NCBI GenBank assembly: GCA_947499175.1
Contig: CANMNU010000002.1
Location: 1-33,178, forward strand
Direction of reading: 5' to 3'
Length of the DNA: 33,178 nt
Origin: Alphaproteobacteria bacterium
GTDB lineage: Bacteria > Pseudomonadota > Alphaproteobacteria > Paracaedibacterales > CAITNM01
The notes beneath the pieces are model-generated. The model was not told where the DNA came from, did not search any database, and saw only the letters and a program-made list of their open reading frames with translations. The position numbers and the translations under genes are program-made. This document shows, piece after piece, positions 13,394 through 28,532 of the stretch (position 1 is its first letter; each line of letters starts with the position of its first letter).

Positions 13394-13414
13394 GTATACC
13401 CAGGGTATACTTTT
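13394..13414 (+). terminator. Weak hairpin plus T-run downstream of tRNA-fMet
   Basis: GTATACC-CAG-GGTATAC followed by TTTT. It overlaps the perfect 10-bp palindrome GGGTATACCC (13392-13401). Confidence 0.25.
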
Positions 13415-13462
13415 GGCTACAAATGCTGATAACTTCTGAGGGGCTATTTCGCTTGATCTTTC

Positions 13463-13573
13463 CTATTTGCAGAATGTGAGAATCTCAACCATCTTAGTGA
13501 ACGTTGGACGCTTCACTCCGGTTAATCGACGAAACTTCTCTTCCTGTAATTCTTTAATCTGATCGTATTTCAT
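13463..13573 (-). pseudogene. Truncated N-terminal fragment of an IS5-family-like transposase (36 codons)
   Basis: Minus-strand GGAGGAAGAC-ATG, then MKYDQIKELQEEKFRRLTGVKRPTFTKMVEILTFCK-stop. The ...FRRLTGVKRxTFxKMVEIL... helix-turn-helix start recalls IS5-family transposases common in intracellular alphaproteobacteria (from memory). No DDE domain follows. Confidence 0.5.
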
Positions 13574-14031
13574 GTCTTCCTCCGATCAGTCCTTTTTTAC
13601 ATAATTTTATCTAATTGTCTGGTTTCGAAAGAAGTCTATTATTGGCATAATTTTGTCCAAGATTTATCAAGAGCAAGAAAATCTGGGCAACATAGAAATT
13701 TTAGAGATCATCAAAAGATTTTCGCCAATCCTTGGTGCCATATCATTTTAGACGGGTTTTATCAGTTTAAAGATGTAGCTGAGGCAATTGATTTAGAGCA
13801 AATGATTACCAATTTGGTTTTTGATTTTGATAAAGCAAGCAAGGCTACAACTAAAAATGATGAAAAAGCCAATTCCAATGATGCAATCAAGAAGCAGCGC
13901 AAGAGCAGGGTTAAGGCTCAAACGCAACGCAGCTTAAATGCTCATGTCCGAGTTCAGATAGATGTGAGAATTTTTGAGGGGGCGAGCGCGCTTTAAATCG
14001 TGCCATAGCGAGCCCTCCCCTTGTAAGTATA

Positions 14032-14079
14032 AAAAGGTCTCAAAGATAGGTTTGTAACCACCAAACTAGGAGACCTTTT
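14032..14079 (+). promoter_or_regulatory. Hairpin sequestering the transposase Shine-Dalgarno
   Basis: AAAAGGTCTC (14032-14041) pairs with GAGACCTTTT (14070-14079), a 10-bp stem. The inner pairing is GGTTTG/CAAACT. The 3' arm overlaps the AGGAG SD located 8 nt before the ATG at 14080. Confidence 0.4.
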
Positions 14080-14269
14080 ATGCAAATCAAAGGATTGCAC
14101 AAGAATATATATAAATTCTATGCTTACGCTCGTACACATGAATGTTTAGATGTCTATCGTCAAGAAATACCAACATATGGTACAATGCTGGCAAAAGCTT
14201 GCCTCTGAAGGCATTAGTCTTAAGCTATTGCAGGAAATCGTTGGCATCAGTCGAGCCATCTATTACCGC

Positions 14270-14319
14270 TACAGAAAGATTTTAAAAAAACTAGTACAGA
14301 AAGATTTTAAAAAAACTAG
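14270..14319. repeat. Perfect 25-bp tandem duplication (2 x TACAGAAAGATTTTAAAAAAACTAG)
   Basis: Copy 1 is 14270-14294 and copy 2 is 14295-14319, and they are identical. Removing one copy restores the reading frame across ...YRYRKILKKLEKGITPPSKKRFKLNKPKWGESRKQLVLQIRRDNPTYGKEK... Confidence 0.95.
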
Positions 14320-14708
14320 AAAAAGGCATAACCCCTCCTTCTAAAAAACGTTTCAAACTTAATAAACCAAAGTGGGGTGAGTCACGCAAACAACTGGTGC
14401 TCCAGATCAGGCGAGATAATCCAACTTATGGTAAAGAAAAAATCGCTATCATCTTAAAGCGCGATTATGGGCAAACCATCAGTCAAAGTGCAGTTGGTAG
14501 AATTTTAAAATATTTGAAAGTAAAGGGACTTATCACTAGGTCTACATCGACCCTACGCACTAAACGAAAACGGGTATTTAAAAAACATGCAAAGGCTTGG
14601 ACCTTTAAGGATTACGAAACCATGAACCTTGGAGAACTTGTCCAAATTGATCACATGACCGTGACAAAAAATGGTATCACTATCAAGCATTTCCAAGGCT
14701 AGAAAAGG

Positions 14709-14802
14709 AAGTCAAAGTCAAAGTCAAAGTCAAAGTCAAAGTCAAAGTCAAAGTCAAAGTCAAAGTCAAAGTCAAAGTCAAAGTCAAAGTCAAAGTCAAA
14801 GT
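14709..14802. repeat. Hexanucleotide microsatellite (AAGTCA) x15 plus partial copy
   Basis: There are 15 perfect head-to-tail AAGTCA units at 14709-14798, then AAGT. The array is in frame with the upstream transposase frame and encodes (Lys-Ser)n. Confidence 0.99.
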
Positions 14803-15237
14803 ACATAGATGCTGGGGTTTTTTCTCACGCCAAAGCTAGCAGCGCGAAACGATTTTTACTGGATTTTGCGAGCCCTTTTCGTAATTAAATCAGTCCAGGT
14901 CGATGGAGGATCAGAATTTATGGCAGCGTTTGAAGATGCTTGTGCCCAACTCAAGATTCCCCTAATTATTTTACCACCTAGAAAGCCATAATATAACGGT
15001 GGTGTTGAGCGAGGTAATAGCACCTTTAGAGAAGAGTTTTATAACCGATCCGATTTTTTAGAAGATTTTGTCAGAGGTATGCAAACTGCGTTAAGTAAGG
15101 CTCTTATAAAATATAACACCTACAGACCACATCGAAACTTGAAAGGTTTAACCCTAATGAAGTATATTGAAAACACCTTATCGGATACCTCTATTTTGTC
15201 TCATTCAATATGAACCCGCACAGCTTGATTTTTAGAC

Positions 15238-15266
15238 TTGACGAATGCCATCACATCTATTAAGTT
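15238..15266 (+). promoter_or_regulatory. Candidate promoter for the glycan operon, with the -35 inside the IS right end
   Basis: TTGACG (15238-15243), a 17-nt spacer, then TAAGTT (15261-15266), about 40 nt upstream of the ATG at 15305. The -35 hexamer lies within the candidate right inverted repeat of the IS. Confidence 0.3.
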
Positions 15267-15304
15267 CTGTTCATGAACACAAGTTTACGATTTGTTAACT
15301 TTTG

Positions 15305-15883
15305 ATGGCAGCTTTTCAAAACACTAGGGAACAGACGGAACAAAAGGTGATGGTGCATCTCCTGACTGAGATTGACCGCAATCCTTCCTTTACTCAGCGT
15401 GGTTTGGCAAGTGAATTAGGAATTGCCCTAGGTTTGATGAATCAGTATTTAAAGAGTTGTGTCACTAAGGGATGGATTAGGGCATCGCAACTTTCACCGC
15501 GTCGGATTACTTATTTTTTGACCCCTGATGGTTTTAAAGAAAAAAGTTCTATGGTTACTGACTATTTGGCGCGTTCATTAACTTTTTTTCGAGATGCCAA
15601 AGCGCAAGTTGAGGAAGCTTTTAATAACTGCCATAAACAGGGTTGGAAAAAGGTTGCTTTAGTAGGCGAGGGGGATTTGGCGGATATTGCCAAGCTTGTT
15701 TCTCATGCTACTAACATTCAAGTTAATCTAGTTGCTATAAATTCAGATTTTACAAGTTTTGATGCGGTTATGATTACTGACGTGGTTAATCCGCAAGGCA
15801 CCTATGATGTGCTCAAAGGCAAGGTTGAGTACAATCATTTATTGGCTTTGAGGCTTTTACATATTTCAAAGGTGGCGCCATGA
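15305..15883 (+). CDS. Winged-helix (MarR/EPS-associated type) transcriptional regulator with C-terminal Rossmann-like domain
   Basis: The track ORF starts at TTG 15302, but the ATG at 15305 is more likely. The N-terminal ~100 aa (LLTEIDRNPSFTQRGLASELGIALGLMNQYLKSCVTKGWI...YFLTPDGFKEK) resembles the small MarR-type regulators found in exopolysaccharide loci. The C-terminal ~90 aa has a GxGxxA fingerprint (KKVALVGEGDLADIA). The stop overlaps the next start (ATGA). Confidence 0.65.
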   Translation: MAAFQNTREQTEQKVMVHLLTEIDRNPSFTQRGLASELGIALGLMNQYLKSCVTKGWIRASQLSPRRITYFLTPDGFKEKSSMVTDYLARSLTFFRDAKAQVEEAFNNCHKQGWKKVALVGEGDLADIAKLVSHATNIQVNLVAINSDFTSFDAVMITDVVNPQGTYDVLKGKVEYNHLLALRLLHISKVAP

Positions 15884-16380
15884 TCAATTGGTTTGTAGCC
15901 CATACCCATCCTTTAAAGGAAATCATTGCCCAGCAGCATTTGTTGGAGCAGGGTTTTGAAGTCTATCTGCCAAGATTTAAAAAAATTCGGCGACATGCGC
16001 GCAAAGTTGAGGAAGTTTTGGTGCCATTGTTTCCACGTTATATATTTATTGGTATGAACATGGAGGTGGCAAGGTGGCGCAGTGTTAATGGAACCCGTGG
16101 TGTTTCTTATTTACTGACCAATTATGATCGTCCTGCTGTGGTGCCCAACTACGTTATTGAAAATTTAAAGTCCCATGAAATTGCCTATGGAATTGTGCCT
16201 GTAAATAGCTTGATTACTTTTGCAAAAGGTGACAAAGTTCGCGTAACCGATGGGGCATTTCAAGATCAAATTGCAATTTTTGAAATGCTTGATGATAAGC
16301 AAAGAGTGCAGTTGTTGTTAAGCTTTTTGGGTAAAGAAATAAAGGTTGCTTTGCCTGATTATATGGTGGAAGCGGCTTAA
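15880..16380 (+). CDS. rfaH-like: RfaH-like specialised NusG paralog (operon-specific antiterminator)
   Basis: 166 aa. It is colinear with E. coli RfaH as recalled: WF..H...KE..A..HL..QGFE.YLP, PLFPRYIF, NGTRGVSYLL...RPAVVP..VI, and the KOW segment KGDKVRVTDGAFQDQIAIFEMLDDKQRVQLLLSFLGKEIKV. It is distinct from the housekeeping nusG at 12223-12756. Confidence 0.8.
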   Translation: MINWFVAHTHPLKEIIAQQHLLEQGFEVYLPRFKKIRRHARKVEEVLVPLFPRYIFIGMNMEVARWRSVNGTRGVSYLLTNYDRPAVVPNYVIENLKSHEIAYGIVPVNSLITFAKGDKVRVTDGAFQDQIAIFEMLDDKQRVQLLLSFLGKEIKVALPDYMVEAA

Positions 16381-16455
16381 AACTAAATTCACCAGGTGTG
16401 GATATATTAATTTTAGTGGTCTCGGGCAAGCTTGGTGTGCAAGTGCACCCGGACT

Positions 16456-16463
16456 GCGGTAGC
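16456..16463 (+). promoter_or_regulatory. ops-like motif (GCGGTAGC) in the leader after the RfaH-like gene
   Basis: ACTGCGGTAGCTATGG matches 8 contiguous nt of the enterobacterial ops element GGCGGTAGCGTG on the non-template strand. It lies between the RfaH-like stop (16380) and the likely ABC exporter start (GTG 16485). Confidence 0.35.
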
Positions 16464-16484
16464 TATGGTGGAGTAAAATTAAAC

Positions 16485-18245
16485 GTGGCATCGCCTTCAA
16501 TTTATTCGGCAATTTTAAAACTACGATCGTTGCTTACCCGTGAAGAAAAATTAAAGTGGGTTGGTATTATTTGTTTTGCTTTAATGACTTCGGTGTTAGA
16601 GGTGATAACTGCATCTGTCATTGTAGTATTCGCTCAAGTTTTAAATCAACCGGAAGTTGGGCAAAAATATTTGAGTATGGTGGGGTTTGCTCCTCACTTA
16701 TCGCCAGCGCGAGTCTTGTTTTTTATAGCCATAATTGTTGGAATAATTTATTTAGTAAAAAACTTAGTTGCTGCTGCAGAAGTATTTTTTCAAAATTTTT
16801 CAATTCAAAAAATAAATTACCAGTTTAAAAATAAATTACTGCACCGTTATGCTGAGGCTGATTACGGATTTTACTTAACGCGAAATTCATCCTTAGGGCT
16901 AGCAGTTGTTACTGAAGTTGACCTAATATGTTCAGGTGGCATGCTATCAATTGCGACTATTTTATCAGAAGAAATTATCTTTTTATCTTTAGTGTGTTTG
17001 GTCGTTTTTATGAACCCATCTTTAGCTCTAACCATTTTTGCAATTACGATGCTTTTTGGCCTGCTTCTTTCCAAAATAATGTTTCCGCAGTTTTATCGCT
17101 GGGGGCAAAGGTTGCAAGATGCCGGGCTTAATAGTGGGCAAAACTTATTGCAGTTTTTTCATGGTTTTAAAGAAATTGTGTTACTTGGTAAACGTGAAGC
17201 TTTTATTGATGCATACAAATTTCATTCTTTAAAAAAATCGCAAGTTCAGGCGCTGCAAACTGCTACCAATACTTTGCCTCGATTGGTTATAGAGGTTCTT
17301 TTTGTAGGGGTGTTTGTAACGACTGTTGCCATTATGTGCCTTGATCATGAAAGCCCCACTCAAATGATTGGTTTACTTGGTGGATATCTTTATGCTGGGT
17401 TCAGGCTTATGCCTGGATTGAATCGTATTATTAATATGCTTAATACATTTAAATCAGTAATTCCTTCAATTGAACGAGTGTATAAAGAATACACATCAGT
17501 TGCTGCAAAAGAAAATTATGTTGATGTGCCTGATTTTGCATTTCAAAATTCAATCAACTTAACTGGTGTTAGTTTTAGCTATTTAAACACCGAAAAAGAT
17601 GCGTTAAAGAACGTTTCTTTTGAGGTTAAAAAAGGTGAATGTATTGGCATCGTTGGTGAAACTGGTTCTGGAAAATCAACTTTAGTAGATTTAATGTTGG
17701 GCCTTTTGCGTCCATATAAAGGTGCTATTTTAATTGATGCTAAACATCCGGTTAATTCATACCAATGGCACCAAAAAATTGGTTATGTGCCCCAGTCGAT
17801 TTATTTAACTGATGATACGATTGCGGCCAATATAGCTTTTGGTGAAAAAGAGGTTGATGTGCAAAGGCTTAATGCAGCAATTGATGCCGCTCAATTGAGC
17901 AAGTTCATTGAGCAGTTGCCAGATGGTGCTAAAACAGTGGTTGGAGAGCGTGGTGTTCGTTTATCTGGGGGGGAGCGTCAACGAATTTCGATTGCTCGTG
18001 CGCTTTATCGTAACCCTGAGGTTTTGATTTTTGATGAGGCAACATCTGCCTTAGATAATGAAACCGAGGCGAAGTTGATGGAAACAATTCACAGCGTTAG
18101 TAAAAATCGCACGGTGATTATGATTGCCCATCGCCTGACAACACTTAAAGATTGTGATCGTATTGTGATGATGGATGGTGGAATGGTGAGGCAGATTACT
18201 GCATATGAAAATCTTCAGAAAGATAATATAAAAAGCCATGCTTAA
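16485..18245 (+). CDS. ABC exporter, fused permease/ATPase (MsbA/PglK-like)
   Basis: Six-helix TMD followed by an NBD with Walker A GETGSGKST, signature LSGGERQRISIARAL and Walker B VLIFDEATSALD. The track start is GTG 16398. I prefer GTG 16485 (VASPSIYSAILKLRSLLTREEKLKW...), which is preceded by GGTGGAG. The first in-frame ATG is much further downstream. The stop overlaps the pseB start by 8 nt. Confidence 0.85.
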   Translation: MASPSIYSAILKLRSLLTREEKLKWVGIICFALMTSVLEVITASVIVVFAQVLNQPEVGQKYLSMVGFAPHLSPARVLFFIAIIVGIIYLVKNLVAAAEVFFQNFSIQKINYQFKNKLLHRYAEADYGFYLTRNSSLGLAVVTEVDLICSGGMLSIATILSEEIIFLSLVCLVVFMNPSLALTIFAITMLFGLLLSKIMFPQFYRWGQRLQDAGLNSGQNLLQFFHGFKEIVLLGKREAFIDAYKFHSLKKSQVQALQTATNTLPRLVIEVLFVGVFVTTVAIMCLDHESPTQMIGLLGGYLYAGFRLMPGLNRIINMLNTFKSVIPSIERVYKEYTSVAAKENYVDVPDFAFQNSINLTGVSFSYLNTEKDALKNVSFEVKKGECIGIVGETGSGKSTLVDLMLGLLRPYKGAILIDAKHPVNSYQWHQKIGYVPQSIYLTDDTIAANIAFGEKEVDVQRLNAAIDAAQLSKFIEQLPDGAKTVVGERGVRLSGGERQRISIARALYRNPEVLIFDEATSALDNETEAKLMETIHSVSKNRTVIMIAHRLTTLKDCDRIVMMDGGMVRQITAYENLQKDNIKSHA

Positions 18246-19251
18246 AAATTTTCTAATAAAAACGCCAGATCTAAATAATAAAACCATTTTGGTAACGGGT
18301 GGAACAGGCTCGTTCGGCAACCAGTTTGTGCAAACGATTATTGATAATTATTCCCCAAAAAAATTGATTATTTTCTCCAGAGATGAACTTAAGCAATACG
18401 AAATGGCGCAGAACTTTCCTGACAGTAAGCATGAATTTATGCGTTATTTTATAGGTGATGTGCGTGATTATAGCCGTTTAGAAATGGCTTTGCGTGGAGT
18501 TGATATTGTAATTCATGCAGCTGCTTTAAAGCATGTGACAATTGCAGAATACAATCCGTATGAATGCATTCACACAAACGTTATTGGTGCAGAAAATCTT
18601 GTGCGTGCATCTTTAAGAAATGGTGTTAGCCATGTGTTGGCGCTTTCTACCGATAAGGCTGTTAGCCCTATTAATCTGTATGGTGCCAGCAAACTTGCTG
18701 CAGAAAAAATATTTATTGCAGCTAATAATATACGTGGTACAGATCCGACGATATTTTCGGTTGTTCGCTATGGGAACGTAGTTGGATCTCGTGGGAGCGT
18801 GGTGCCATTTTTCAAGAAATTACTAAATGAAGGTGCAAAATCACTGCCGATCACTGATAACGAAATGACACGTTTTTGGATTACGTTGCAACAGGGTGTG
18901 GATTTTGTTTTGTCGAATCTAGCGCTAATGCAAGGTGGAGAAATTTTTATTCCAAAAATTCCTAGCATGAAAATTATAGATTTGGCGAGCGCTATTCAAC
19001 CAGGTATCGATACTCATGAAATCGGTATACGCCCTGGAGAAAAGCTACATGAATGCATGATTACTTCAGATGAAGCTTTGCAAACGGTTGATGTGGACGA
19101 CCGTTACACTATTCTTCCATCGTTTGTGGATCTAAGCTCTTGGCAATGTGGTGTCCAAACAACTCCGGTTGGCAAAAGAATGGTCTATTCAAGCGAAACC
19201 AACACAGAATGGCTTAATACAAATCAACTTACAAAAATGATTGATAGTTAA
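18238..19251 (+). CDS. pseB: UDP-N-acetylglucosamine 4,6-dehydratase (inverting), PseB/FlmA type
   Basis: 337 aa, colinear with H. pylori FlaA1/PseB: ILVTGGTGSFGNQF, SRDELKQYEM, FIGDVRD, IHAAALKHV.IAEYNP.EC, STDKA..PINLYGASKL, FSVVRYGNVVGSRGSVVPFFKKL, MTRFWITL, GGEIF.PKIPSMKI.DLA, IGIRPGEKLHE. Confidence 0.92.
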   Translation: MLKNFLIKTPDLNNKTILVTGGTGSFGNQFVQTIIDNYSPKKLIIFSRDELKQYEMAQNFPDSKHEFMRYFIGDVRDYSRLEMALRGVDIVIHAAALKHVTIAEYNPYECIHTNVIGAENLVRASLRNGVSHVLALSTDKAVSPINLYGASKLAAEKIFIAANNIRGTDPTIFSVVRYGNVVGSRGSVVPFFKKLLNEGAKSLPITDNEMTRFWITLQQGVDFVLSNLALMQGGEIFIPKIPSMKIIDLASAIQPGIDTHEIGIRPGEKLHECMITSDEALQTVDVDDRYTILPSFVDLSSWQCGVQTTPVGKRMVYSSETNTEWLNTNQLTKMIDS

Positions 19252-19252
19252 C

Positions 19253-20413
19253 ATGGTTCCTTATAGCAGACACTTTATTGATCAAGATGATATTGATGCA
19301 GTTGTGCAAGTGCTGCAAGGCGGTTGGTTGACATGTGGGCCGGTTGTTGAAAAATTTGAGCAAAAATTAGCAAAAATTGTTCATGCCAAATACGCAATTG
19401 CTTGCTCCAATGGCACTACGGCTTTACATCTCGCAATGTTGGCTTTGGGAATTAGTGATGGCGATGTTGTTTTAGTTCCAGCAATCACCTTTTTAGCTTC
19501 AGCCAATGCTGCAAGGTATGTAGGTGCTGACGTAGTTTTTGTTGATGTTGATCCAACTACTGGTTTGATGACATATGAAACACTAGAGGTTGCGATTTTA
19601 GCAAATCATGAAAAATCATTAAAAGCTGTGGTTAATGTTCATTTTGCAGGGCAATGTGAAAATTTGGAAACAATACATAAAGTCGCTAGAAAGCATGATT
19701 TATTAATTATAGAAGATGCGGCTCACGCTATTGGCACCATTTATATAGATGAAAGCGGTAAGCAGCACGCAATAGGTTCTAATTCCTTTTCAGATATAAC
19801 AACATTTTCCTTTCATCCAGTTAAAACGATTGCAATGGGGGAGGGTGGGGCTGTTACTACAAACAATCCGGAAATTGCGAAGAAACTGAAACTGTTACGC
19901 AGTCATGGAATGATTCGTGATTCATTGCAGTGGGAAGGCGACGAATCCGGCCCATGGTATTATGAAATGCAGGAACTGGGGTTTAATTATCGAATTAGTG
20001 ATATCAACTGTGCTCTTGGTCTTAGTCAATTAGAAAATCTTGAAAATTTTAAATTAGAACGTGCGAACATTGTAAAGTTTTATGATAATGCATGTGCCGG
20101 CTTAAATTATTTAAACCCTTTGAAAAAATTACAATATTCTGATACTGCTTGGCATTTGTATGTTGTGCTTATTGATTTTGATATTTTGGGTAAATCACGA
20201 GCTCAAGTTATGACAGAGTTAAAAGAAAAAGGTATCGGCACCCAAGTGCATTATATACCTTTGCATAAGCAGCCATATTACAAAAATCTTTGTGGAGAAA
20301 TGACCTTACCAGGTGCGGAAGGCTATTATGCTACGTGCTTAAGTTTGCCATTGTATGTTGGATTGAAAGAAGAAGATCAGCAGCATGTTGTTGATGCATT
20401 GTCAAATGCTTAG
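19253..20413 (+). CDS. pseC: UDP-4-amino-4,6-dideoxy-N-acetyl-beta-L-altrosamine transaminase (DegT/PseC family)
   Basis: ATG at 19253, one nt after the pseB stop: MVPYSRHFIDQDDIDAV... It has the DegT-family PLP region FSFHPVKTIAMGEGGAV and sits immediately after pseB. Confidence 0.9.
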   Translation: MVPYSRHFIDQDDIDAVVQVLQGGWLTCGPVVEKFEQKLAKIVHAKYAIACSNGTTALHLAMLALGISDGDVVLVPAITFLASANAARYVGADVVFVDVDPTTGLMTYETLEVAILANHEKSLKAVVNVHFAGQCENLETIHKVARKHDLLIIEDAAHAIGTIYIDESGKQHAIGSNSFSDITTFSFHPVKTIAMGEGGAVTTNNPEIAKKLKLLRSHGMIRDSLQWEGDESGPWYYEMQELGFNYRISDINCALGLSQLENLENFKLERANIVKFYDNACAGLNYLNPLKKLQYSDTAWHLYVVLIDFDILGKSRAQVMTELKEKGIGTQVHYIPLHKQPYYKNLCGEMTLPGAEGYYATCLSLPLYVGLKEEDQQHVVDALSNA

Positions 20414-21281
20414 CAAAATTGGCATAGGTACGGCAAACTTCACGCAAAATTATGGGATTTTACCCAGTGATGATGCTATAGACGTTAATTCAATTTTAAA
20501 GTTAGCAACTGACCATGGGATTGATACTTTCGATACAGCTTTTGCTTATGGGGATTTTCTTAGCATCTTGGATGATAAATCTGATTTATCCAATTTAAAT
20601 GTCATTACAAAATTCAGCATTTTAGATGACTACGATGCTATTTTTCAAAAGATGAAACATGTAAAAGAACAATATAGTTTTGATGGATATTATGGGCTAC
20701 TTATTCATGATCCGCAAAACTTGGAAAGAGCTGATAAAGGTGAGCTACTCAGTTTATTTGATAAATTGCACAATGGTGGTTTAGTCAAAAAAATTGGCAT
20801 ATCTGTGTATGATTTAAACGATCTTGAGGGTTTTAGAAATATAATCGATCCAGAGCTTATCCAAATACCTTTGAGTCCACTAAGCCAGACATTTGTTAAC
20901 GACAAATTTATTGACTATGTTGAGCGACAAGAAATTGAAGTGCATGCCCGGTCCTTGTTTCTTCAGGGGGTTTTGTTATCTGACAAACTGCCTGAATCTT
21001 TAAATAATCTAGAGCCGCTGTGGCGCTTGTACATGGGGATTTTTGAACAGCACTCCGAAATGTACATGGACGCAACTAAATCTTATAACTTGCGATTAGA
21101 GGCTTTGCTATCCTGGGCATTTACTCATCAATGGGTTAGCAAGTGGATTCTTGGGGTTTCTTGCAAGCAAGATCTAGAAGAAATTATTGAAAGCAACAAT
21201 CAAGAAATATCTCACCCTTTCTCTTCATTAAAATATATGGCACACCCTATGACTGATCCTAGAAACTGGAAAATGGCATGA
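20406..21281 (+). CDS. Aldo/keto reductase family oxidoreductase
   Basis: The ATG at 20406 overlaps the pseC stop by 8 nt. Sequence features are MLSKIGIGTANFTQNYG, GIDTFDTAFAYGD, LLIHDP, VKKIGISVY and ARSLFLQGVLL. The stop overlaps the next start (ATGA). Confidence 0.8.
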   Translation: MLSKIGIGTANFTQNYGILPSDDAIDVNSILKLATDHGIDTFDTAFAYGDFLSILDDKSDLSNLNVITKFSILDDYDAIFQKMKHVKEQYSFDGYYGLLIHDPQNLERADKGELLSLFDKLHNGGLVKKIGISVYDLNDLEGFRNIIDPELIQIPLSPLSQTFVNDKFIDYVERQEIEVHARSLFLQGVLLSDKLPESLNNLEPLWRLYMGIFEQHSEMYMDATKSYNLRLEALLSWAFTHQWVSKWILGVSCKQDLEEIIESNNQEISHPFSSLKYMAHPMTDPRNWKMA

Positions 21282-23302
21282 AAAAAGTTGCAATTATTCA
21301 AGCAAGAATGGGGGCATCAAGATTTCCAGGGAAAGTATTAGAATTTCTTAATAAAAAGCCAGTGTTACACTGGGTAGTAGATGCAGTTTTGCTTATTCCC
21401 ACAATCGATCAAATAGTTGTGGCTACATCGGATACAGAGATAGATCAGCCTATTGCTGACTGGTGTAGTAAAAATCAAATTGCGGTGTTTAGGGGGAGCG
21501 AGTCAGATGTTTTGTCGCGTTTTTATGTAGCTGCTAAAGAACACAACGCTGATGTCGTTGTAAGGATCACTGCTGATTGTCCTTTGCTTGATCCAAATAT
21601 TGTGGGGCAAGTGCTTTATTTAGTTGTCAGCGGGGAGGTCGATTACGCATCTAATGTTTCGCCCGCTACATGGCCGGATGGTCTGGATTGCGAGGCATTT
21701 ACCATTGCTGCTTTGGAAGAAGCTCATCATAAGGCGGGGCGCCAAAGTGATCGAGAGCATGTGACGCCGTATATTCGCAATAATCAATACAAATTTAAGA
21801 TAGCTAATGTCCCTGCTGCAATGCCAGGTTTACAAAAACATCGCTGGACAATTGATACCAAGGAAGACTTAGAGTTTGTTGAAAAATTAGTAAAGGAAAC
21901 TAAGGTAAATGCTACAACTTATGACTATTTGGAAACATTAAAGAACAACTCTAAACTTGTTCAACCTGCCTATATACGGAACGAAGGCTTTGATAAATCA
22001 TTGCAAAATGAAACGGTTGAATGCACAAATTTCCAAAACTCTAAAATTCTTTTGAACAGAGCTTTAAAAACTATTCCATTAGGTTCGCAGACTTTTAGTA
22101 AGTCTTATATTCAATATCCAGAAAATACTTCTCCAATGTTTTTAACCCATGGTGAGGGTTCTCATGTATGGGATGTTGATGGTAATGAATATATCGATTT
22201 AGTAAGTGGACTGTTGCCAAATGTGCTCGGGTATAATGATGCGGATGTTAATTATGCAATTTCTATTCAGTTGCAAAAGGGTATATCTTTTAGCCTTTCA
22301 ACAGATTTAGAAATACAATTAGCTGAAAAATTGTGTGACATTATACCATGTGCCCAAAAAGTTAGATTTGCCAAAAATGGTACAGATGTAACAACAGCAG
22401 CTATCAGGCTTGCCCGTGCATTTACTAGGCGCGATAAGGTTATTTTATGTGGTTATCATGGTTGGCAAGATTGGTCGATTGGTACCACAACTCGCAATAA
22501 GGGGGTGCCTAAAGCAGTATCAGAACTTTCAGTAGCTGTACCTTATAATGATTTAAATAGAATTGAAGAGTTACTAAAAAGCGAAGAATTTTCCTGTGTT
22601 ATAATGGAGGCATGCAATTCTTCGGTCCCTCATGATGGGTATTTGCAAGGTATTAAAAATTTGTGCGAGCAATACGGTTCCTTATTTATTTTTGATGAAG
22701 TAATTACAGGCTTTAGATTTGCGCTTGGTGGGGCTCAAGAATATTTTGGGGTAACTCCGCATCTTTCATGTTTTGGCAAAGCCATGGGAAATGGTATGCC
22801 TATTTCAGCAATTGTTGGCAGATATGATGTGATGCGCGAGATGGAAGATATTTTCTTTTCAGGTACTTTTGGAGGAGAGACACTTTCTTTGGCTGCATCA
22901 CTGGCAACTATAGAAAAAATTGAAAAAAATAATGTAATTAAATACTTATGGTCTTATGGGCAACAGCTTGATGATTCTGTAAAGCAGTTGATTGCGAAAT
23001 ATGATTTAGAAAAAGCAATTAACTTATGTGGCTATGCCCCTTGGAAGATTTTTCAGGTCCTAGACCATACCAAGGCTACGGCTTTTGAAATTAAGACTTT
23101 ATTTATTCAGGAGATGATTAAACGGGGAATTTTGATTAATAGCTCACTGAACATAAATTTTGCTCATGGTGCCTTAGAGAAATATAAAATTTTAAAAGCT
23201 ATCGAAGATGTATTTGGCATTATGTCAGAGTGTTTGCAAAACGGAAAAATAAAGCAGTACTTAAAAAGTTCAACTATAAAACCGCTGTTTAAAGTGCGTT
23301 AA
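21278..23302 (+). CDS. Fusion protein: SpsF/FlmC-type cytidylyltransferase (N) + class-III PLP aminotransferase, GSA-aminomutase-like (C)
   Basis: 674 aa. Residues 1-~230 (MKKVAIIQARMGASRFPGKVL...RITADCPLLDP...HRWTIDTKEDLEF) are SpsF/FlmC-like and are the likely CMP-pseudaminate synthetase (PseF function). Residues ~265-674 (THGEGSHVWDVDGNEYIDL..., FIFDEVITGFR, SCFGKAMGNGMPISA) are class-III aminotransferase-like with the PLP lysine context. Confidence 0.8.
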   Translation: MKKVAIIQARMGASRFPGKVLEFLNKKPVLHWVVDAVLLIPTIDQIVVATSDTEIDQPIADWCSKNQIAVFRGSESDVLSRFYVAAKEHNADVVVRITADCPLLDPNIVGQVLYLVVSGEVDYASNVSPATWPDGLDCEAFTIAALEEAHHKAGRQSDREHVTPYIRNNQYKFKIANVPAAMPGLQKHRWTIDTKEDLEFVEKLVKETKVNATTYDYLETLKNNSKLVQPAYIRNEGFDKSLQNETVECTNFQNSKILLNRALKTIPLGSQTFSKSYIQYPENTSPMFLTHGEGSHVWDVDGNEYIDLVSGLLPNVLGYNDADVNYAISIQLQKGISFSLSTDLEIQLAEKLCDIIPCAQKVRFAKNGTDVTTAAIRLARAFTRRDKVILCGYHGWQDWSIGTTTRNKGVPKAVSELSVAVPYNDLNRIEELLKSEEFSCVIMEACNSSVPHDGYLQGIKNLCEQYGSLFIFDEVITGFRFALGGAQEYFGVTPHLSCFGKAMGNGMPISAIVGRYDVMREMEDIFFSGTFGGETLSLAASLATIEKIEKNNVIKYLWSYGQQLDDSVKQLIAKYDLEKAINLCGYAPWKIFQVLDHTKATAFEIKTLFIQEMIKRGILINSSLNINFAHGALEKYKILKAIEDVFGIMSECLQNGKIKQYLKSSTIKPLFKVR

Positions 23303-23307
23303 ATCTC

Positions 23308-24693
23308 GTGAAAAAACTAGCAATTTTTCGTTTTGAGGCTTCTCCAACCATAGGCGCTGGTCATGCAATACGCTCTTTTGTGCTTGCATATGCGTTAGTA
23401 GAAGAAGGTTGGGTTTGCAGAGTCGTTACCACTTTAACGACATATGACTTTATTCCAAAGTTAGATCGATTTGAACGAATTGATCCGGATAATTTCTACC
23501 AGAATCCTTTGCCGTGCGATTTGTTGGTTGTTGATAATTATGAATTAGATCACGTTTATGAAAAGCATTTTAGACCAACTGCTAAAAAAATTATGGTGAT
23601 TGATGATTTGGCTAATCGTCACCATGATTCTGATATTTTGCTTGATCAAACCTATGGTCGTGATGCAGCTGACTATAAAAATTTAGTACCCCAACATTGT
23701 AAAATATTAGCTGGTAGTGATTATGTTTTGTTACGCAAAGAGTTCGTTGAGCTTAGGCCAAAAGCCATAGAAAAAAGGCGCAACACCGCTGAAATAAAAC
23801 GCATACTCGTTTCTATGGGTGGAAGCGACTCACAAAATTATACTTTAAAAGCTTTAGATATGATTAAACAGTCAGGTTTTACTGGTGCAATCGATATTGT
23901 TTTGGGTTTTAAATCATTAAATTTTGAAGCAGTGAAAGATTATATTGCCAGCCTTCCTAACGAATGCGTTATTCATGTTAACGCGGATATGCCAAAGCTT
24001 GTCTATGGGGCAGATCTAGCTGTTGGTGCAGCAGGGACAAGTGTTTGGGAAAGATGTTGTTTGGGATTGCCCCAGTATTTACTTCAAACTGCGGACAATC
24101 AATCAGTTGTTATTCAGCAATTTGCTCATTCAGATTTCTTAACTTTTTACAATTGTGTCAACGCAGATTACCAAGATAATGTGGATGTTGGAAATATTGA
24201 TGGTCTGGGGGCTTTTCGACTATTGTGCTACTTAAATACAGGTTACGACAAGGCTAATCGGCTAATTACTCATGCTAAAGTTTGTAAAGAAGATGTTGAT
24301 TTAATTTTTCGTTGGCAGCAAAATCCCGAACTAAGGATATTTTCTTTTAACCAAGAAAGTCCTGCTTATGAAGAACATAAAAAATGGTTTTATGAAAAAC
24401 TAAGAAGTCCAAGTGTGTTTGAAAAAATCATTGCTGATGGAATTCCATGTGGCATACTACGTCTCGACTATTGTTTTGAGAACAACTCTTGGAAGTTAAG
24501 CTGGTACATATTACCAGAATTCCAAAGAAAAGGAATGGGTTCTATAGCGTTAAATTTTTCTAAAAAGCTTGCTGTTGGAAAAACTGTTAAGGCTTTTGTG
24601 TTCAAGGAAAATATAGCTTCGCAGAAAGCTATGAAAAAAGCAGATTTTAATGTTATATCAGAAGATCAAAATGGATTTCATTATGAGTACTAA
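23308..24693 (+). CDS. pseG/pseH: Fused PseG (UDP-2,4-diacetamido-2,4,6-trideoxy-beta-L-altropyranose hydrolase) + PseH-like GNAT N-acetyltransferase
   Basis: GTG start, 461 aa. The N-terminal ~300 aa are PseG-like (FRFEASPTIGAGHAIRSFVLAYAL, VSMGGSD, GAAGTSVWERCCLGLP). The C-terminal ~140 aa are GNAT-like (ILPEFQRKGMGSIAL..., NIASQKAMKKADF). Confidence 0.8.
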   Translation: MKKLAIFRFEASPTIGAGHAIRSFVLAYALVEEGWVCRVVTTLTTYDFIPKLDRFERIDPDNFYQNPLPCDLLVVDNYELDHVYEKHFRPTAKKIMVIDDLANRHHDSDILLDQTYGRDAADYKNLVPQHCKILAGSDYVLLRKEFVELRPKAIEKRRNTAEIKRILVSMGGSDSQNYTLKALDMIKQSGFTGAIDIVLGFKSLNFEAVKDYIASLPNECVIHVNADMPKLVYGADLAVGAAGTSVWERCCLGLPQYLLQTADNQSVVIQQFAHSDFLTFYNCVNADYQDNVDVGNIDGLGAFRLLCYLNTGYDKANRLITHAKVCKEDVDLIFRWQQNPELRIFSFNQESPAYEEHKKWFYEKLRSPSVFEKIIADGIPCGILRLDYCFENNSWKLSWYILPEFQRKGMGSIALNFSKKLAVGKTVKAFVFKENIASQKAMKKADFNVISEDQNGFHYEY

Positions 24694-25687
24694 ACCCTAC
24701 ATAATAGCTGAACTCTCAGGTAATCATAATGGCGATATTAATCTCGCTTTTAGACTTATAGAAGCAGCAAAAAATTCCGGTGCTGACGCTGTAAAGCTGC
24801 AAACTTATACCGCTGATACTATTACCATAGATTGTGATAATGATGATTTCATGATTAAAGACGGACTTTGGGACGGTTATAAACTCTATGATCTATACAA
24901 AGAAGCTCACACCCCGTGGGAATGGCATGAACTTTTATTTGCCAAAGGAAAAGAGCTTGGAATCACGGTTTTTTCAACACCGTTTGATGAAACAGCTGTG
25001 GATTTACTAGAAAGTTTAAATGCTCCAATTTATAAAATAGCTTCATTTGAATTAGTGCATCATCCTCTTATTGCATATGTAGCCAAGCTTAAAAAACCGA
25101 TGATTATGTCAACAGGGATGGCATCAATAGAAGAAATTACAGAAGCTGTTGATGTGGCGTTTACGAGCGGTTGTACAGACTTAACATTATTGCACTGTGT
25201 TAGTGAATACCCGGCACCTGTTGAAAACAGCAATCTTGCTACAATGCTTGATTTAAAACAACGGTTTCCAAAATGTAAAATTGGTTTATCTGATCATACC
25301 TTGGGTACAACGGTGGCAATTGCTGCTGTAGCATTAGGGGCAAGAGTTATCGAAAAACATATTACATTGGATCGCTCTGAAGGTGGGATAGATGCTGCAT
25401 TTTCGCTTGAGCCAGATGAGTTAAAATACTTATGTGAAGCAACGCATGATGCAGCCTTGGCTATTGGTAAGGTTAATTATCAGCGAAGTGATTCAGAACG
25501 CAAAAATATGGTTTTTAGGCGCAGTATTTATGCTGTAAAAGACATTGCCGAAGGTGAATTTTTTACTAAGAATAATATTAGGATTATTCGCCCTGGGTAT
25601 GGGGTGGCGCCTAAGGAATATGAAGGTACACTAAATACGAGATCTTCTAGAAATTATAAATTTGGCTCATCAATAAAACAAAAATAA
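24683..25687 (+). CDS. pseI: Pseudaminic acid synthase (NeuB family)
   Basis: MSTKPYIIAELSGNHNGDINLAFRLIEAAKNSGADAVKLQTYTADT..., FSTPFD, YKIASFE, LSDHT, and a C-terminal SAF-like domain. The alternative start at 24671 is in frame. The gene overlaps the pseG/H stop. Confidence 0.9.
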   Translation: MSTKPYIIAELSGNHNGDINLAFRLIEAAKNSGADAVKLQTYTADTITIDCDNDDFMIKDGLWDGYKLYDLYKEAHTPWEWHELLFAKGKELGITVFSTPFDETAVDLLESLNAPIYKIASFELVHHPLIAYVAKLKKPMIMSTGMASIEEITEAVDVAFTSGCTDLTLLHCVSEYPAPVENSNLATMLDLKQRFPKCKIGLSDHTLGTTVAIAAVALGARVIEKHITLDRSEGGIDAAFSLEPDELKYLCEATHDAALAIGKVNYQRSDSERKNMVFRRSIYAVKDIAEGEFFTKNNIRIIRPGYGVAPKEYEGTLNTRSSRNYKFGSSIKQK

Positions 25688-25712
25688 AATTGTGGTAAAA
25701 AGCGAGTAAATT

Positions 25713-26669
25713 ATGCAAAAAAAGAAAAAAATAATAGCTGTTGGCATTAGTAAATTACTATATTTTACTCTTAAAGAGTTGCCAACAGTAGATTTTGAAT
25801 GTCTATTAGATAACAGCTATGCGGATGATTCTTATGAGGGAATTCCTGTAAGAAAATATGATGTTTTAAAACAAGAAAAATTAGAGAATGTAGTTTTTTA
25901 CATATTTGCAGTATCCAACCACTCAATAAATATTATTCAAGACAGACTTTCAGGATACGGAGTTTTGGCCGATCAAATATTCTTATACTCAGATCTCTTT
26001 AAGGAGAGTTTTGAAAATAAAATACATAAATTATTTGGTTCCGATATAGCACAAAGTAGATATAAATTTGCCAAGACAGCTACACTAAATTCTAAATTAA
26101 CTGTGCAGACCACTATATGTGGAAGTTGGTTATTCTTAGAATCTTTAAATAACACTAAAGACGTAGCTGGAGATATAGCTGAGGTTGGTTGTTTTGAAGG
26201 TGGCAATGCTTTTCTTGCTTTGCGATCAGGAATTGTTCCTGAAAATAAGAAGTTTTTTCTGTTTGATTCATTTGAGGGTTTTCCTGCCCTTAGTGAATTT
26301 GATCCAATTAAACATAAGCAAGGAGATCTTAAGACAGTATTAGATCTTGATGAGATAAAAGGAACTTTTAAGAAATTTCCTAATGTTAAAATTATACCAG
26401 GATTTGTTCCAGGTACATTTAGTCAAATAGATGACGATAGTAAATTTAGTCTTGTGTTCTTTGACTGCGACCTTTATCAGCCTGCTTGTGATACACTCGA
26501 TTTCTTTTGGTCAAAATTAAGTAAAGGTGGGCTATTTTTATTGCATGACTATTTTTATGAACCAGGTGGCTTTAGCGGTGTAAAAAAAGCGGTGGATGAG
26601 TTTAGTAAACTGAAGAATATAGAGTCTTTTCCAATATGGGAAACTACTATGGTTGTGTTGCGAAAATAA
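25713..26669 (+). CDS. TylF/MycF-family (macrocin-type) SAM-dependent O-methyltransferase with N-terminal extension
   Basis: 318 aa. The C-terminal ~190 aa carry TylF hallmarks: DIAEVGCFEGGNA, FFLFDSFEGFP, VFFDCDLYQP and GGLFLLHDY. Confidence 0.7.
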   Translation: MQKKKKIIAVGISKLLYFTLKELPTVDFECLLDNSYADDSYEGIPVRKYDVLKQEKLENVVFYIFAVSNHSINIIQDRLSGYGVLADQIFLYSDLFKESFENKIHKLFGSDIAQSRYKFAKTATLNSKLTVQTTICGSWLFLESLNNTKDVAGDIAEVGCFEGGNAFLALRSGIVPENKKFFLFDSFEGFPALSEFDPIKHKQGDLKTVLDLDEIKGTFKKFPNVKIIPGFVPGTFSQIDDDSKFSLVFFDCDLYQPACDTLDFFWSKLSKGGLFLLHDYFYEPGGFSGVKKAVDEFSKLKNIESFPIWETTMVVLRK

Positions 26670-26688
26670 TATTAATTAGGAAAAGACG

Positions 26689-27792
26689 TTGGATAAATGC
26701 CAGAAAGATATTGCAAGTGTTGAGTTTGTAAACATAAAAGACTTGCCTGATTGCGAGAAAATAATAGATGATATTTGGACTCAATCAAAGCAAGGTTGGA
26801 TCTGGAACACAGTTCAAATGTTTGAGTTTAGGAAATCCTGCTTACCAAAGGGCAAAGAAACAAAGGACTTATCTTTTGTGATTTATAAGGAAGGAAAGCC
26901 AATCGGATTTTTCTTCCTATTAGCTTTTAAATCGCAAACATATTTTGAGGCTACTTTTTCAGCTGCGCCACTTTATTGGCCGTGTTTTATAGATCGATAC
27001 GCTGATGATTTAAAAATCAATAAAGAAACGTTTGCCTATATAGATATGCTTTGTATGGATAATAATATTGGTTCCTTGAAGGTTATGTTAAGTGATGGGG
27101 AATCTAAGTCTAAGATTTATCATAGTATCCTCCAAGAACACAATTATATTGATGAAAGTTACGACTCGCATATTGTAAAACCTAAAGAATTTAGCATTAG
27201 AGATGTCAGGCCTAAGAATAGGCAAATGATACGAAAGTATGCGGATAAATTTGTAGTAAAAATCTTACTTGAAAGTGACATAACGGAAGACACAATTCAT
27301 CAGTATAACAAACTACATGTTTTGGATTCAGGCGGTAATTTTCGTGATTTAAACACTTATTACAAACAATTTGAATTGTTTCAGAAAGGAGGTTTTGTCG
27401 TGTGTGCTTTTGCTAAAGAAAACAACAATATTTCTGTAGGTATGCTACATGTTTTGGTTTCTAAAAATGAAGCTTATGAAACTTCTGTAGCAGTTAATCC
27501 AGAGTATCATAAGTTTTACGTGTCGCATATTTTGAAGTTTCATGCGATACAATACATGCAATCTGAACAGGTTGAGGTTTATGAGCTAGGGCAGAGTTTT
27601 TATTGCTCAACTTTAAGCCATATTCCATCAAAAAAGAACTATGGAATAAACTACTTCAAAGATGGGTGGTCTGGTGGAAAAACAAGAAGAGTGCATAACG
27701 CTATAAAATTTTATCAAGCAGAAGCACTGAATGATTTTTGCATTTTAAAAGCGAGAGAATTAGAAAACACTTGCTATTTCAGCAATAATTAA
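26689..27792 (+). CDS. FemAB-like (GNAT-fold, possibly aminoacyl-tRNA- or acyl-dependent) transferase
   Basis: TTG start preceded by AGGAAAAG. 367 aa. The layout resembles the FemAB/FemX family: PKNRQMIRKYADKFVVKI, a second lobe with NEAYETSVAVNPEYHKFYVSHILKFHAIQYM and VYELGQ, and a terminal YGINYFKDGWSGG. The assignment is by eye only. Confidence 0.4.
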   Translation: MDKCQKDIASVEFVNIKDLPDCEKIIDDIWTQSKQGWIWNTVQMFEFRKSCLPKGKETKDLSFVIYKEGKPIGFFFLLAFKSQTYFEATFSAAPLYWPCFIDRYADDLKINKETFAYIDMLCMDNNIGSLKVMLSDGESKSKIYHSILQEHNYIDESYDSHIVKPKEFSIRDVRPKNRQMIRKYADKFVVKILLESDITEDTIHQYNKLHVLDSGGNFRDLNTYYKQFELFQKGGFVVCAFAKENNNISVGMLHVLVSKNEAYETSVAVNPEYHKFYVSHILKFHAIQYMQSEQVEVYELGQSFYCSTLSHIPSKKNYGINYFKDGWSGGKTRRVHNAIKFYQAEALNDFCILKARELENTCYFSNN

Positions 27793-27813
27793 GACTTAAC
27801 AAAGAGTAGATAC

Positions 27814-28527
27814 ATGCAACAGAGAACTGAAAAGTGGTACCAACAATCGTATAAGACAAATGGTTTCCATGCTCAAAGGAAATATCCCAATGAAGAATTG
27901 TGCCGCTTCATGGGACGAAATTTTTTTAAGATATCTGTTAATCAAAGAAAGGATATAAGAATTCTTGAAACTGGATGTGGTTCAGGTGGAAATATCTGGA
28001 TGATTGCTAAAGAAGGTTTTGATGCTTACGGAATTGATTTGTCAGCGGAGGCTATTACATTGGCCGAGCAGATGCTGAAATTGTATGGAGTACAATGTAA
28101 TTTGAGTGTACAAAATATGTGTACAATGAATTTTCCTGATAATTATTTTGATTCAGTAGTTGATATCTTCTCTTCATATTGCCTGAATAAAGAGGGAGGA
28201 GCTTTTTATTTAAAAGAAGTGAAGAGAGTTTTGAAACCAGGTGGAGTTTTTTTTTCATATTTTCCATCAAAAGCATCGGATACTTTTACTAATAAAGGCG
28301 ATGCAACCTTTGTTGACGATGACACTATTAGTAGTGTATTAAGAGCTGATTCTCCCTATTATGGTAACAATTACAACGTCAGATTTTTACATCCTAGGGA
28401 ATACGAACAACAACTTACTTCGCTAGATTTTAGTATTGCACATAGCGAGTCTTTAAATAAAACCTACAATAATAGAAATGAAAACTTTAATTTTGTTGTC
28501 ATTGAAGCTAAAAAAGGCGCAATTTAA
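27814..28527 (+). CDS. Class I SAM-dependent methyltransferase
   Basis: 237 aa with motif I ILETGCGSGGNIWMIA, the acidic post-I residue in YGIDLS, and LKPGGVFFSY. Confidence 0.8.
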   Translation: MQQRTEKWYQQSYKTNGFHAQRKYPNEELCRFMGRNFFKISVNQRKDIRILETGCGSGGNIWMIAKEGFDAYGIDLSAEAITLAEQMLKLYGVQCNLSVQNMCTMNFPDNYFDSVVDIFSSYCLNKEGGAFYLKEVKRVLKPGGVFFSYFPSKASDTFTNKGDATFVDDDTISSVLRADSPYYGNNYNVRFLHPREYEQQLTSLDFSIAHSESLNKTYNNRNENFNFVVIEAKKGAI

Positions 28528-28532
28528 TATCT

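Follow-up and report, generated by a model that had tools for sequence, protein, structure and literature searches.

A cytidylyltransferase-aminotransferase fusion in an alphaproteobacterial pseudaminic acid operon, predicted to be a bifunctional enzyme of a tailoring module

A 33,178-nucleotide stretch of DNA from an alphaproteobacterium of the order Paracaedibacterales (GenBank assembly GCA_947499175.1, contig CANMNU010000002.1, positions 1 to 33,178 of the forward strand; the whole stretch is called the window below) carries an operon for the synthesis of pseudaminic acid (Pse), in which one protein of 674 amino acids (aa) joins a cytidylyltransferase (CT) to a class-III aminotransferase (AT) dependent on pyridoxal phosphate (PLP). 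The protein is predicted to be a genuine bifunctional CT/AT of a module that tailors Pse, and in this prediction we are far more confident than in the complete mechanism proposed below. The redox partner of the module is an aldo/keto reductase (AKR), the gene of which lies immediately upstream. What the operon encodes is a Pse pathway with a predicted additional tailoring branch, not a new category of pathway. The features concerned are the following.

20406 to 21281, plus strand: AKR, 291 aa from the ATG at 20406 (PF00248, 60.7 bits against a gathering threshold of 24).
21278 to 23302, plus strand: CT-AT fusion, a single uninterrupted ATG open reading frame (ORF) of 674 aa in the ORF listing.
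21278 to 22018, plus strand: CT domain, SpsF/FlmC-type, a probable cytidine monophosphate (CMP)-nonulosonate synthetase (residues 1-247, PF02348).
22031 to 23302, plus strand: AT domain, class III (fold type I), PLP-dependent, resembling glutamate-1-semialdehyde aminomutase (GSAM) and distinct from HemL (residues 252-674, PF00202).
22778 to 22780, plus strand: codon of Lys501, the predicted PLP Schiff-base lysine (in SCFGKAMGNG), which aligns with the PLP lysine of GSAM (FGKIIGGG).

A sequence-only reading of this DNA had described one 674-aa ORF made of an SpsF/FlmC-type and a class-III PLP domain. Pfam agrees, placing CTP_transf_3 (PF02348) at residues 4-225 (121.7 bits against a gathering threshold of 22.6, profile positions 1-209 of 217) and Aminotran_3 (PF00202) at residues 283-585 (168.9 bits against 30.5). 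The same reading had raised the possibility of a frameshift, which the metagenome data removed. An 801-bp region across the junction was represented by 94-100% of sampled words in nine metagenome runs (soil, biofilm, and lake or fresh water), and contigs of four unrelated runs matched positions 20300-23400 of the window with no substitution, no indel and no joint. The identical 674-aa product was called on four separate assemblies, one of them an NCBI metagenome-assembled genome (MAG). A protein search returned more than 100 clusters of 664-690 aa with both Pfam domains and 52-99% identity to the fusion, and fused full-length homologues occur in many phyla. An assembly or sequencing artefact is ruled out by these contigs, assemblies and clusters of the same architecture, and the fusion is real. 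Nor is it unusual: fused and unfused forms are both common, the unfused form is known from earlier descriptions in Aeromonas and Legionella, and automated annotation pipelines already name the fusion descriptively.

The two parts are joined directly. In the fusion, residues 1-247 are matched by stand-alone CTs of 251-259 aa from related loci, and residues 252-674 by stand-alone ATs of 428-431 aa; because the two sets cover the protein in this way, the join is end to end, with a linker of fewer than 10 residues. A linker of about 40 aa, as first read from the sequence, is refuted by the meeting of these alignments at residues 247/252, and the gap between the Pfam envelopes is due to partial coverage by the profile hidden Markov models. 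The AlphaFold2 model of the fusion (mean pLDDT 87, pTM 0.88) is confident throughout, including residues 226-250. A Foldseek search with the full model returned single-domain GSAM-like matches only, and no two-domain precedent was found in the PDB.

Conservation was judged in an alignment (A1) of 39 fused homologues with 52-87% identity to the fusion. The PLP lysine and at least 100 other positions were invariant down to 52% identity. In the CT domain these included R10, R15, K19, D100-C101-P102, D134, D137, and H161, and in the AT domain K501, D473, E474, T530, a Trp-rich loop, K275, and R406. Because the catalytic residues of both domains are invariant in all 39 homologues, neither domain is a relic, and both active sites are, on the evidence of this alignment, under purifying selection. 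An inactive C-terminal relic, which loss of the context of the PLP lysine in orthologs might have revealed, is ruled out, since K501 was retained in 39 of 39.

The CT domain belongs to the SpsF/FlmC type: its PF02348 match is nearly full length, and the Arg/Lys CTP-binding motif and the acidic residues are conserved. Over residues 4-201 it shares 41% identity (E = 4e-39) with FlmC of Caulobacter crescentus (238 aa, stand-alone; sequence translated from the synthetic operon in the supplement of PMC7591256). According to the same paper, FlmC is not homologous to PseF and is the sixth enzyme of a Pse pathway sufficient for flagellin modification in Escherichia coli. In Bacillus subtilis spsF mutants, legionaminic acid is still made and accumulates, and it is not delivered. 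The best solved relative of the domain is 6oew, named "Cytidylyltransferase". PseF itself was ruled out as the identity of the domain (TIGR03584 matched the N-terminal 237 aa at profile positions 1-54 only, with 27.9 bits where the cut-off is 205.7), and profile searches of the window proteins found no PseF. The sole other CT in the window, at 30889-31647, is KdsB-like (PRK13368, 263 bits). Because the window is without PseF and the domain is 41% identical to FlmC, the domain is the best candidate for the CMP-pseudaminate (CMP-nonulosonate) synthetase of the operon. Judged by its profile scores it is a functional analogue of PseF at most and not a PseF member. The CT had earlier been counted as part of an additional chemistry; the lack of PseF in the window and the likeness to FlmC make it the probable activating enzyme of the pathway itself.

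The AT domain is a class-III PLP enzyme, in which K501, D473, and T530 align with the corresponding residues of GSAM and are invariant; the lysine that had been picked out in SCFGKAMGNG from the letters is K501. The closest solved structure is GSAM 5i92 (214 bits, ~31% identity, TM-score 0.84), and Foldseek gave TM-scores of 0.84-0.88 to GSAM and FumI. The closest characterised relatives are GSAM, GntE, D-phenylglycine aminotransferase, FumI, and PctV. HemL was rejected for this domain, since both of its models scored under their cut-offs (TIGR00713, 271.6 against 527.3 bits; PRK00062, 279.3 against 398 bits). NCBIfam PRK06209 gave 393.2 bits against a cut-off of 486. The loop and motif that mark HemL are both replaced: where GSAM has its gating loop, the domain is 9 residues shorter and reads YHGWQDWSI-GTTT-RNKG (invariant YHGWQDW...TTRNKG), and the SPVRAF substrate motif of GSAM has become an invariant QTFSKS.

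The AKR was listed mechanically as an ORF of 298 aa (20385-21281), with 20406 as its likely start. This start overlaps the stop of pseC, and the TGA of the AKR overlaps the ATG of the fusion as ATGA at 21278-21281, an overlap that had also been seen earlier; because of these stop/start overlaps, PseC, the AKR and the fusion are taken to be translationally coupled. Membership in the AKR superfamily follows from a PF00248 score above the gathering threshold together with the catalytic tetrad Asp-Tyr-Lys-His (in DTAxxYG, ITK, and LIH), which is at least 90% conserved in 34 homologues of related loci. No solved structure was related to the AKR by sequence at E < 1e-3.

Related loci were sampled by a scan with one genome per species, which returned 80 loci; these were mapped by tblastn and phmmer with the window proteins, and other neighbours were assigned with Pfam and NCBIfam. 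The order PseB-PseC-[oxidoreductase]-CT-AT-PseG(-GNAT)-PseI recurs in Alpha-, Beta-, Gamma-, and Deltaproteobacteria, Acidobacteriota, Verrucomicrobiota, Chloroflexota, Planctomycetota, Actinomycetota, Bacillota (Paenibacillus thalictri), and DPANN archaea. Of the 80 loci, 60 have a PseI-like gene near the AT, 47 have PseC, 46 PseG, and 39 PseB. CT and AT are fused in at least 20 loci and are adjacent but separate in ~23, including those of Aeromonas cavernicola, Colwellia, Janthinobacterium, Endozoicomonas, Stenotrophobium, and Paenibacillus. In four Acidobacteriota MAGs (L007, L008, L009, and L012, at about 8900-12045), GFO/IDH/MocA, CT and AT are joined in one protein of 1028-1051 aa, the CT boundary of which lacks a start codon, and one alphaproteobacterial MAG carries a GFO-AT fusion of 748 aa (L047, 2083-4329). 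CT-AKR fusions are found in the literature, in a Vibrio Pse cluster, where a dehydrogenase comes next, and as EpaA of Acinetobacter baumannii (PMC12053666 for EpaA). Rosetta-stone relations of this kind connect the three activities with a single task, performed on a nonulosonate.

The AT was always accompanied by an oxidoreductase, and also by a CT. The redox partner was an AKR in 35 loci and a GFO/IDH/MocA dehydrogenase in ~17 (Pfam-confirmed), and a short-chain dehydrogenase/reductase (SDR) in a separate cluster type. In a neighbour-joining tree of the AT domain, sequences with an AKR partner are intermingled with those that have a GFO partner, which indicates that the redox partner was exchanged repeatedly. 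The nearest solved relatives of the GFO partner are dehydrogenases acting on secondary alcohols of inositol or sugars. In three loci (L029, L047, and L068) a PseF-like enzyme (TIGR03584, 142 bits) takes the place of the CT. The view that reductase, CT and AT together imply chemistry beyond the Pse pathway was therefore borne out in part: the trio is linked in 80 loci, is variably fused, swaps partners and has a precedent in EpaA, while its CT is not additional.

The same AT clade also occurs in a second cluster type (L063-L077; Bacteroidota, Ignavibacteria, and Chloroflexota; e.g., L072 of Hymenobacter setariae, 7002-14170). Its genes encode an SpsF-type CT, a transketolase split into N and C halves, the AT, an SDR, a KdsC-like HAD phosphatase, a short NeuB-like synthase without the SAF domain and, often, a membrane protein of the fatty-acid-hydroxylase family. 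It may make an amino-ulosonic acid, starting from a ketose phosphate that the transketolase supplies. Between PseG and PseI, a pair of a PIG-L/LmbE-type deacetylase and a formyltransferase was found in 8-9 loci (e.g., L042, 14427-15113; L032, 13684-14406), and the acetamidino set WbuX/WbuZ in 6-9 (e.g., L046, 6841-8052; L074, 7254-8021). Both sets indicate further N-acyl editing of the same sugar, and because of them the number of N-acyltransferases per locus is an ambiguous guide to a third amine.

The remaining genes of the operon and its surroundings are listed here.

15880 to 16380, plus strand: RfaH-like protein.
16398 to 18245, plus strand: PglK/MsbA-like ABC exporter.
18238 to 19251, plus strand: PseB, inverting UDP-GlcNAc 4,6-dehydratase (TIGR03589, 505.7 bits against a cut-off of 407.75).
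19241 to 20413, plus strand: PseC, C4 aminotransferase of the DegT family (TIGR03588, 504.4 bits against 423.5).
23308 to 24693, plus strand: PseG, UDP-sugar hydrolase, fused to a GNAT N-acetyltransferase (TIGR03590, 230.6 bits against 153.55, residues 6-272).
24650 to 25687, plus strand: PseI, pseudaminic acid synthase (TIGR03586, 497.8 bits against 340.25).
25713 to 30182, plus strand: TylF-type methyltransferase, FemAB-like acyl/aminoacyl transferase, class-I S-adenosylmethionine methyltransferase, and LIC12162-family transferase (Pfam, NCBIfam).
30143 to 32605, plus strand: HpcH aldolase, KdsB-like CT, and 2-hydroxyacid dehydrogenase.

The genes at 15880-32605 are tightly packed and all on the plus strand. 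The six-enzyme Pse set is represented by PseB, PseC, PseG, and PseI above their cut-offs, by a weak GNAT for PseH, and by the SpsF-type domain for the absent PseF; the canonical PseC of the DegT family had already been recognised from the letters. The GNAT part of the PseG fusion matches Acetyltransf_3 at residues 325-447 and is weakly PseH-like (TIGR03585, 24 bits against 93), and the PseG-GNAT fusion is also present in ~20 related loci. The genes at 25713-30182 are candidates for acylating or methylating the modified sugar and for transferring it.

We propose the following chemistry. PseB, PseC, the GNAT fused to PseG, PseG, and PseI would build a Pse-type nonulosonic acid, a step that is well supported. 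A secondary hydroxyl of this acid would then be oxidised to a ketone by the NAD(P)-dependent oxidoreductase, here the AKR and in other lineages a GFO/IDH/MocA protein or an SDR; C8 would be the likeliest site, giving a methyl ketone. The class-III PLP domain would transaminate the ketone to an 8-amino-8-deoxy (5,7,8-triamino) Pse derivative. A methyl ketone, as in 8-keto Pse, is the archetypal substrate shape of class-III omega-transaminases, and a GFO/IDH/MocA dehydrogenase with an AT is the standard pair for converting a hydroxyl through a ketone to an amine on sugars. The SpsF/FlmC-type domain, by homology to FlmC, would turn the nonulosonate into a CMP-glycoside, standing in for PseF. Tailoring may act on the free sugar or on the CMP-sugar, so that oxidation and transamination could come before or after activation, and the fusion would hold the intermediate near the activating site and couple the two. 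The new amine may be acylated or methylated by the products of the FemAB-like, GNAT and methyltransferase genes, and the LIC12162-family enzyme would transfer the sugar.

This full mechanism, from hydroxyl through ketone to amine on Pse, probably at C8 and coupled to CMP activation, is put forward tentatively, as a proposal with a real chance of being right that we would stop short of calling probable. More doubtful, and to be held loosely, is its extension to the module as a whole: that it is a route to 8-amino-8-deoxy (5,7,8-triamino) Pse, that triamino nonulosonic acids are common and have been overlooked, and that the fusions channel a labile keto/amino intermediate. Such sugars would then be widespread and not the curiosity of one fish pathogen, because the module sits in Pse operons of more than 10 phyla, DPANN archaea included.

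Several precedents bear on this proposal. EpaA (CTP_transf_3 and AKR), together with the SDR EpaB, converts Pse5Ac7Ac to 8-epi-Pse5Ac7Ac in A. baumannii (PMC12053666), which indicates that SpsF-type CTs team with redox enzymes acting at C8 of Pse. The O-antigen of Flexibacter (Tenacibaculum) maritimum contains a 5,7-diacylamido-8-amino-3,5,7,8,9-pentadeoxy-manno-nonulosonic acid (PMC3210612); biosynthetic genes for this 8-amino sugar were not found in the literature searched, and the O-antigen paper gives no nonulosonate synthase locus. In Aeromonas, the polar-flagellin glycosylation island (FGI) of group I (subgroup IA) consists of pseB, pseC, a reductase, "pseF", a class-III AT, pseG, and pseI (PMC7874193), and the same arrangement was seen in two loci of our scan (L050 and L052). 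The LPS (lipopolysaccharide) locus of Legionella pneumophila Sg6/Sg12 encodes PseG, a GSA-aminomutase-like protein, a CT and an aryl-alcohol dehydrogenase, all unfused. Literature searches that paired triamino with nonulosonic, and glutamate-1-semialdehyde with nonulosonic or pseudaminic, returned the Legionella genomics paper only. The trio was thus noted before in Aeromonas and Legionella without functional study; its breadth, its fusion states, its partner swaps and a functional proposal are not in the literature searched.

A. hydrophila AH-1, which was grouped with the strains of subgroup IA (PMC7874193), has on its flagellin a Pse-like glycan whose mass is 403 Da and whose oxonium ion appears at m/z 404, and some fragments of this glycan lie one unit off those of acetylated Pse (PMC4691044). 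An even m/z for an even-electron ion corresponds to an odd number of nitrogens, and Pse5Ac7Ac gives 316/317; at the low resolution of these data the parity is suggestive of a third nitrogen. Decomposition of the 403-Da mass by hand into known acyl groups gave no convincing formula, and only the parity argument is kept.

Some points weigh against conversion of a hydroxyl to an amine on Pse. Three points are ones that we infer: where the reaction takes place (C8 or C4), which way the redox step runs, and whether the substrate is free or CMP-bound. AKRs normally reduce in vivo, and an oxidising role would be atypical. L. pneumophila strains other than Sg1 carry the unfused trio, and we know of no report of a triamino sugar from them. 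The WbuX/WbuZ acetamidino genes in related loci are another possible source of a third nitrogen. In the transketolase/SDR/phosphatase clusters the AT may act on a sugar phosphate before condensation, so that its substrate is not necessarily a finished nonulosonate. Finally, the mass data of AH-1 are of low resolution, and the authors proposed a nitrogen-free formula (PMC4691044).

Epimerisation is the alternative that stands closest to a described system. The AKR would reduce a keto-nonulosonate to an epimer (8-epi- or 4-epi-Pse), which the CT would activate, as in an EpaA/EpaB-type module, and the PLP domain would supply the ketone by deamination or as a side reaction. The part of the EpaA CT-AKR fusion in the conversion of Pse to 8-epi-Pse was shown genetically (PMC12053666), and in the Vibrio Pse cluster a dehydrogenase gene comes after the CT-AKR fusion. 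The reducing habit of AKRs would also fit, as would the trio in Legionella non-Sg1 clusters, from which epimeric legionaminic acids have reportedly been described. Yet epimerisation needs no AT, and the AT is the most conserved member of the module, with every catalytic residue kept. An EpaB-like SDR is absent from the window, no adh_short-type SDR besides PseB was found in the operon, and the combination of a CT-AKR fusion with an EpaB/AciE-like SDR is not present here. Epimerisation would also leave the odd nominal mass of the AH-1 glycan unexplained, and the pairing of GFO/IDH/MocA with an AT is classic for making an amine from a hydroxyl. We regard epimerisation as unlikely.

Alternatively, the AT and the AKR might make or modify a substituent that is not a sugar, for instance an amino- or hydroxy-acyl group with a semialdehyde or keto acid as its source, which GNAT, FemAB or formyl-type transferases would attach to N5, N7 or a hydroxyl. 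The closest characterised relatives of the AT do use small amino or keto compounds as substrates, unusual N-acyl groups are common on Pse derivatives, and the loci are rich in acyltransferases, deacetylase/formyltransferase pairs, methyltransferases and a FemAB-like gene. However, a free small acid would hardly explain why the AT is recurrently fused to a CT and to a sugar-type GFO dehydrogenase, and the Aeromonas subgroup IA island has the trio with no acyltransferase. The invariant Trp-rich YHGWQDW in place of the GSAM gating loop would also be compatible with a carbohydrate pocket. This explanation, too, we consider improbable.

That the PLP domain is a GSAM-like aminomutase, shifting an amino group between adjacent carbons (e.g., in a 7-amino-8-keto nonulosonate) with no net input of nitrogen, seems to us very improbable. 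GSAM is the nearest family by sequence and fold, and some related islands lack PseH and could leave N7 free, but the gating loop that retains the diamino intermediate in GSAM is short and replaced, HemL scores lie far below the cut-off, and a mutase would not account for a third nitrogen. An artefactual fusion or a dead C-terminal domain is scarcely credible in view of four metagenome assemblies identical at the junction, more than 100 clusters, an invariant K501 and a confident AlphaFold2 model.

The operon borders a conserved block on the minus strand. Upstream of it lie nusG and the genes of ribosomal proteins L11, L1, L10, and L12, and two minus-strand ORFs of ~1,390 aa are presumably rpoB and rpoC; a 405-aa ORF with a TTG start (51-1268, minus strand) is located downstream of the presumed rpoC. 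The boundary between this nusG-rplKAJL-rpoBC block and the glycan island on the plus strand falls at 12756-15300 and contains a divergent pair of tRNA genes, tRNA-Trp (13078-13154, minus strand) and tRNA-Met (13266-13342, plus strand), and a 101-aa ORF (14397-14702) with a weak match to the transposase-type HTH_21. The G+C content drops to 0.32-0.35 in the 25-30 kb part of the window, and together with the boundary features this is consistent with an acquired or variable island. The RfaH-like gene is immediately preceded by the gene of a 193-aa winged-helix protein (HTH_24/MarR-like; 15302-15883, plus strand), a possible regulator of the island. A search upstream of the operon for the RfaH ops element (GGCGGTAG) found none beyond chance.

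At the far end, an HpcH/HpaI-type aldolase (30143-30892), the KdsB-like CT (30889-31647) and a D-2-hydroxyacid dehydrogenase (31640-32605) are followed by an SDR epimerase/dehydratase that runs off the window end (33178). This region, 30143-33178, is a second putative activated-acid module, and its product could be a 2-keto-3-deoxy acid, CMP-activated and different from Kdo. In L015, L028, L054, L061, and L073, too, KdsB-like and/or HpcH genes lie near the AT.

Among named organisms, the amoeba symbionts Odyssella and Paracaedibacter are the closest relatives of this bacterium. Two metagenome runs, one from soil (X1, 2012) and one from biofilm (X2, 2014), gave contigs of 1679 and 3052 bp that are equal in length and sequence over 20300-23400, and lake and freshwater runs also contain the same strain at 100% identity. 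This may mean that the organism is cosmopolitan; alternatively, some of the runs may share material.

Pseudaminic acids, bacterial surface sugars that resemble sialic acid, decorate flagellins, capsules and O-antigens and are targets for vaccines, antibodies, phage receptors and serotyping. The module recurs in Aeromonas, Legionella, Colwellia, Janthinobacterium, Paenibacillus, many uncultured phyla and alphaproteobacteria resembling amoeba symbionts, and given this spread many organisms predicted from their pse genes to make "Pse5Ac7Ac" probably display another sugar. Assigning its chemistry would explain glycan masses such as the 403 Da of A. hydrophila AH-1, could link the 8-amino nonulosonic acid of Tenacibaculum to genes, and would improve the prediction of glycan structures from gene clusters. 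The AKR and the CT-AT fusion would also be a compact two-protein tool for the chemoenzymatic synthesis of amino-functionalised CMP-nonulosonates.

Among known systems, the Kdo8N pathway of Shewanella offers a parallel in chemistry: a hydroxyl of an ulosonic acid is oxidised and transaminated, and the product is then CMP-activated by a KdsB-type enzyme. KdnA is said, in work of 2013 attributed to Gattis et al., to transaminate oxidised Kdo in this pathway. The beginning of the pathway, the oxidation of Kdo at C8 by KdnB, is documented (PMC5125639). The pathway differs in its iron-type alcohol dehydrogenase, in another aminotransferase, in an eight-carbon sugar with a primary alcohol, and in the absence of fusions.

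EpaA/EpaB of the A. baumannii prophages resembles the module in combining CTP_transf_3 with an AKR and in adding Pse tailoring to the standard pathway. There, however, CT and AKR form the fusion, an SDR is its partner, no PLP enzyme takes part and the sugar is epimerised; in the present operon the CT has the AT as its fusion partner, and the AKR is separate and has no SDR partner. FlmC of Caulobacter and SpsF of B. subtilis belong with the CT domain to the PF02348 family, FlmC being the 41% identical member and, like the CT domain, part of a Pse gene set without PseF. Both are stand-alone proteins of ~240 aa, whereas the CT domain is covalently joined to a PLP enzyme, and their pathways, reconstituted or defined genetically, include neither a class-III AT nor an AKR. 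HemL (GSAM) is the nearest relative of the AT domain in sequence and fold and shares its PLP lysine, Asp and phosphate-binding Thr; the AT domain differs in scoring below the HemL cut-offs, in its short and rewritten gating loop, in QTFSKS for SPVRAF, and in its setting among glycan synthesis genes instead of haem synthesis. FGI group I of Aeromonas and the Sg6/Sg12 locus of Legionella contain the same gene set, with CT and AT as separate genes there and as one polypeptide here.

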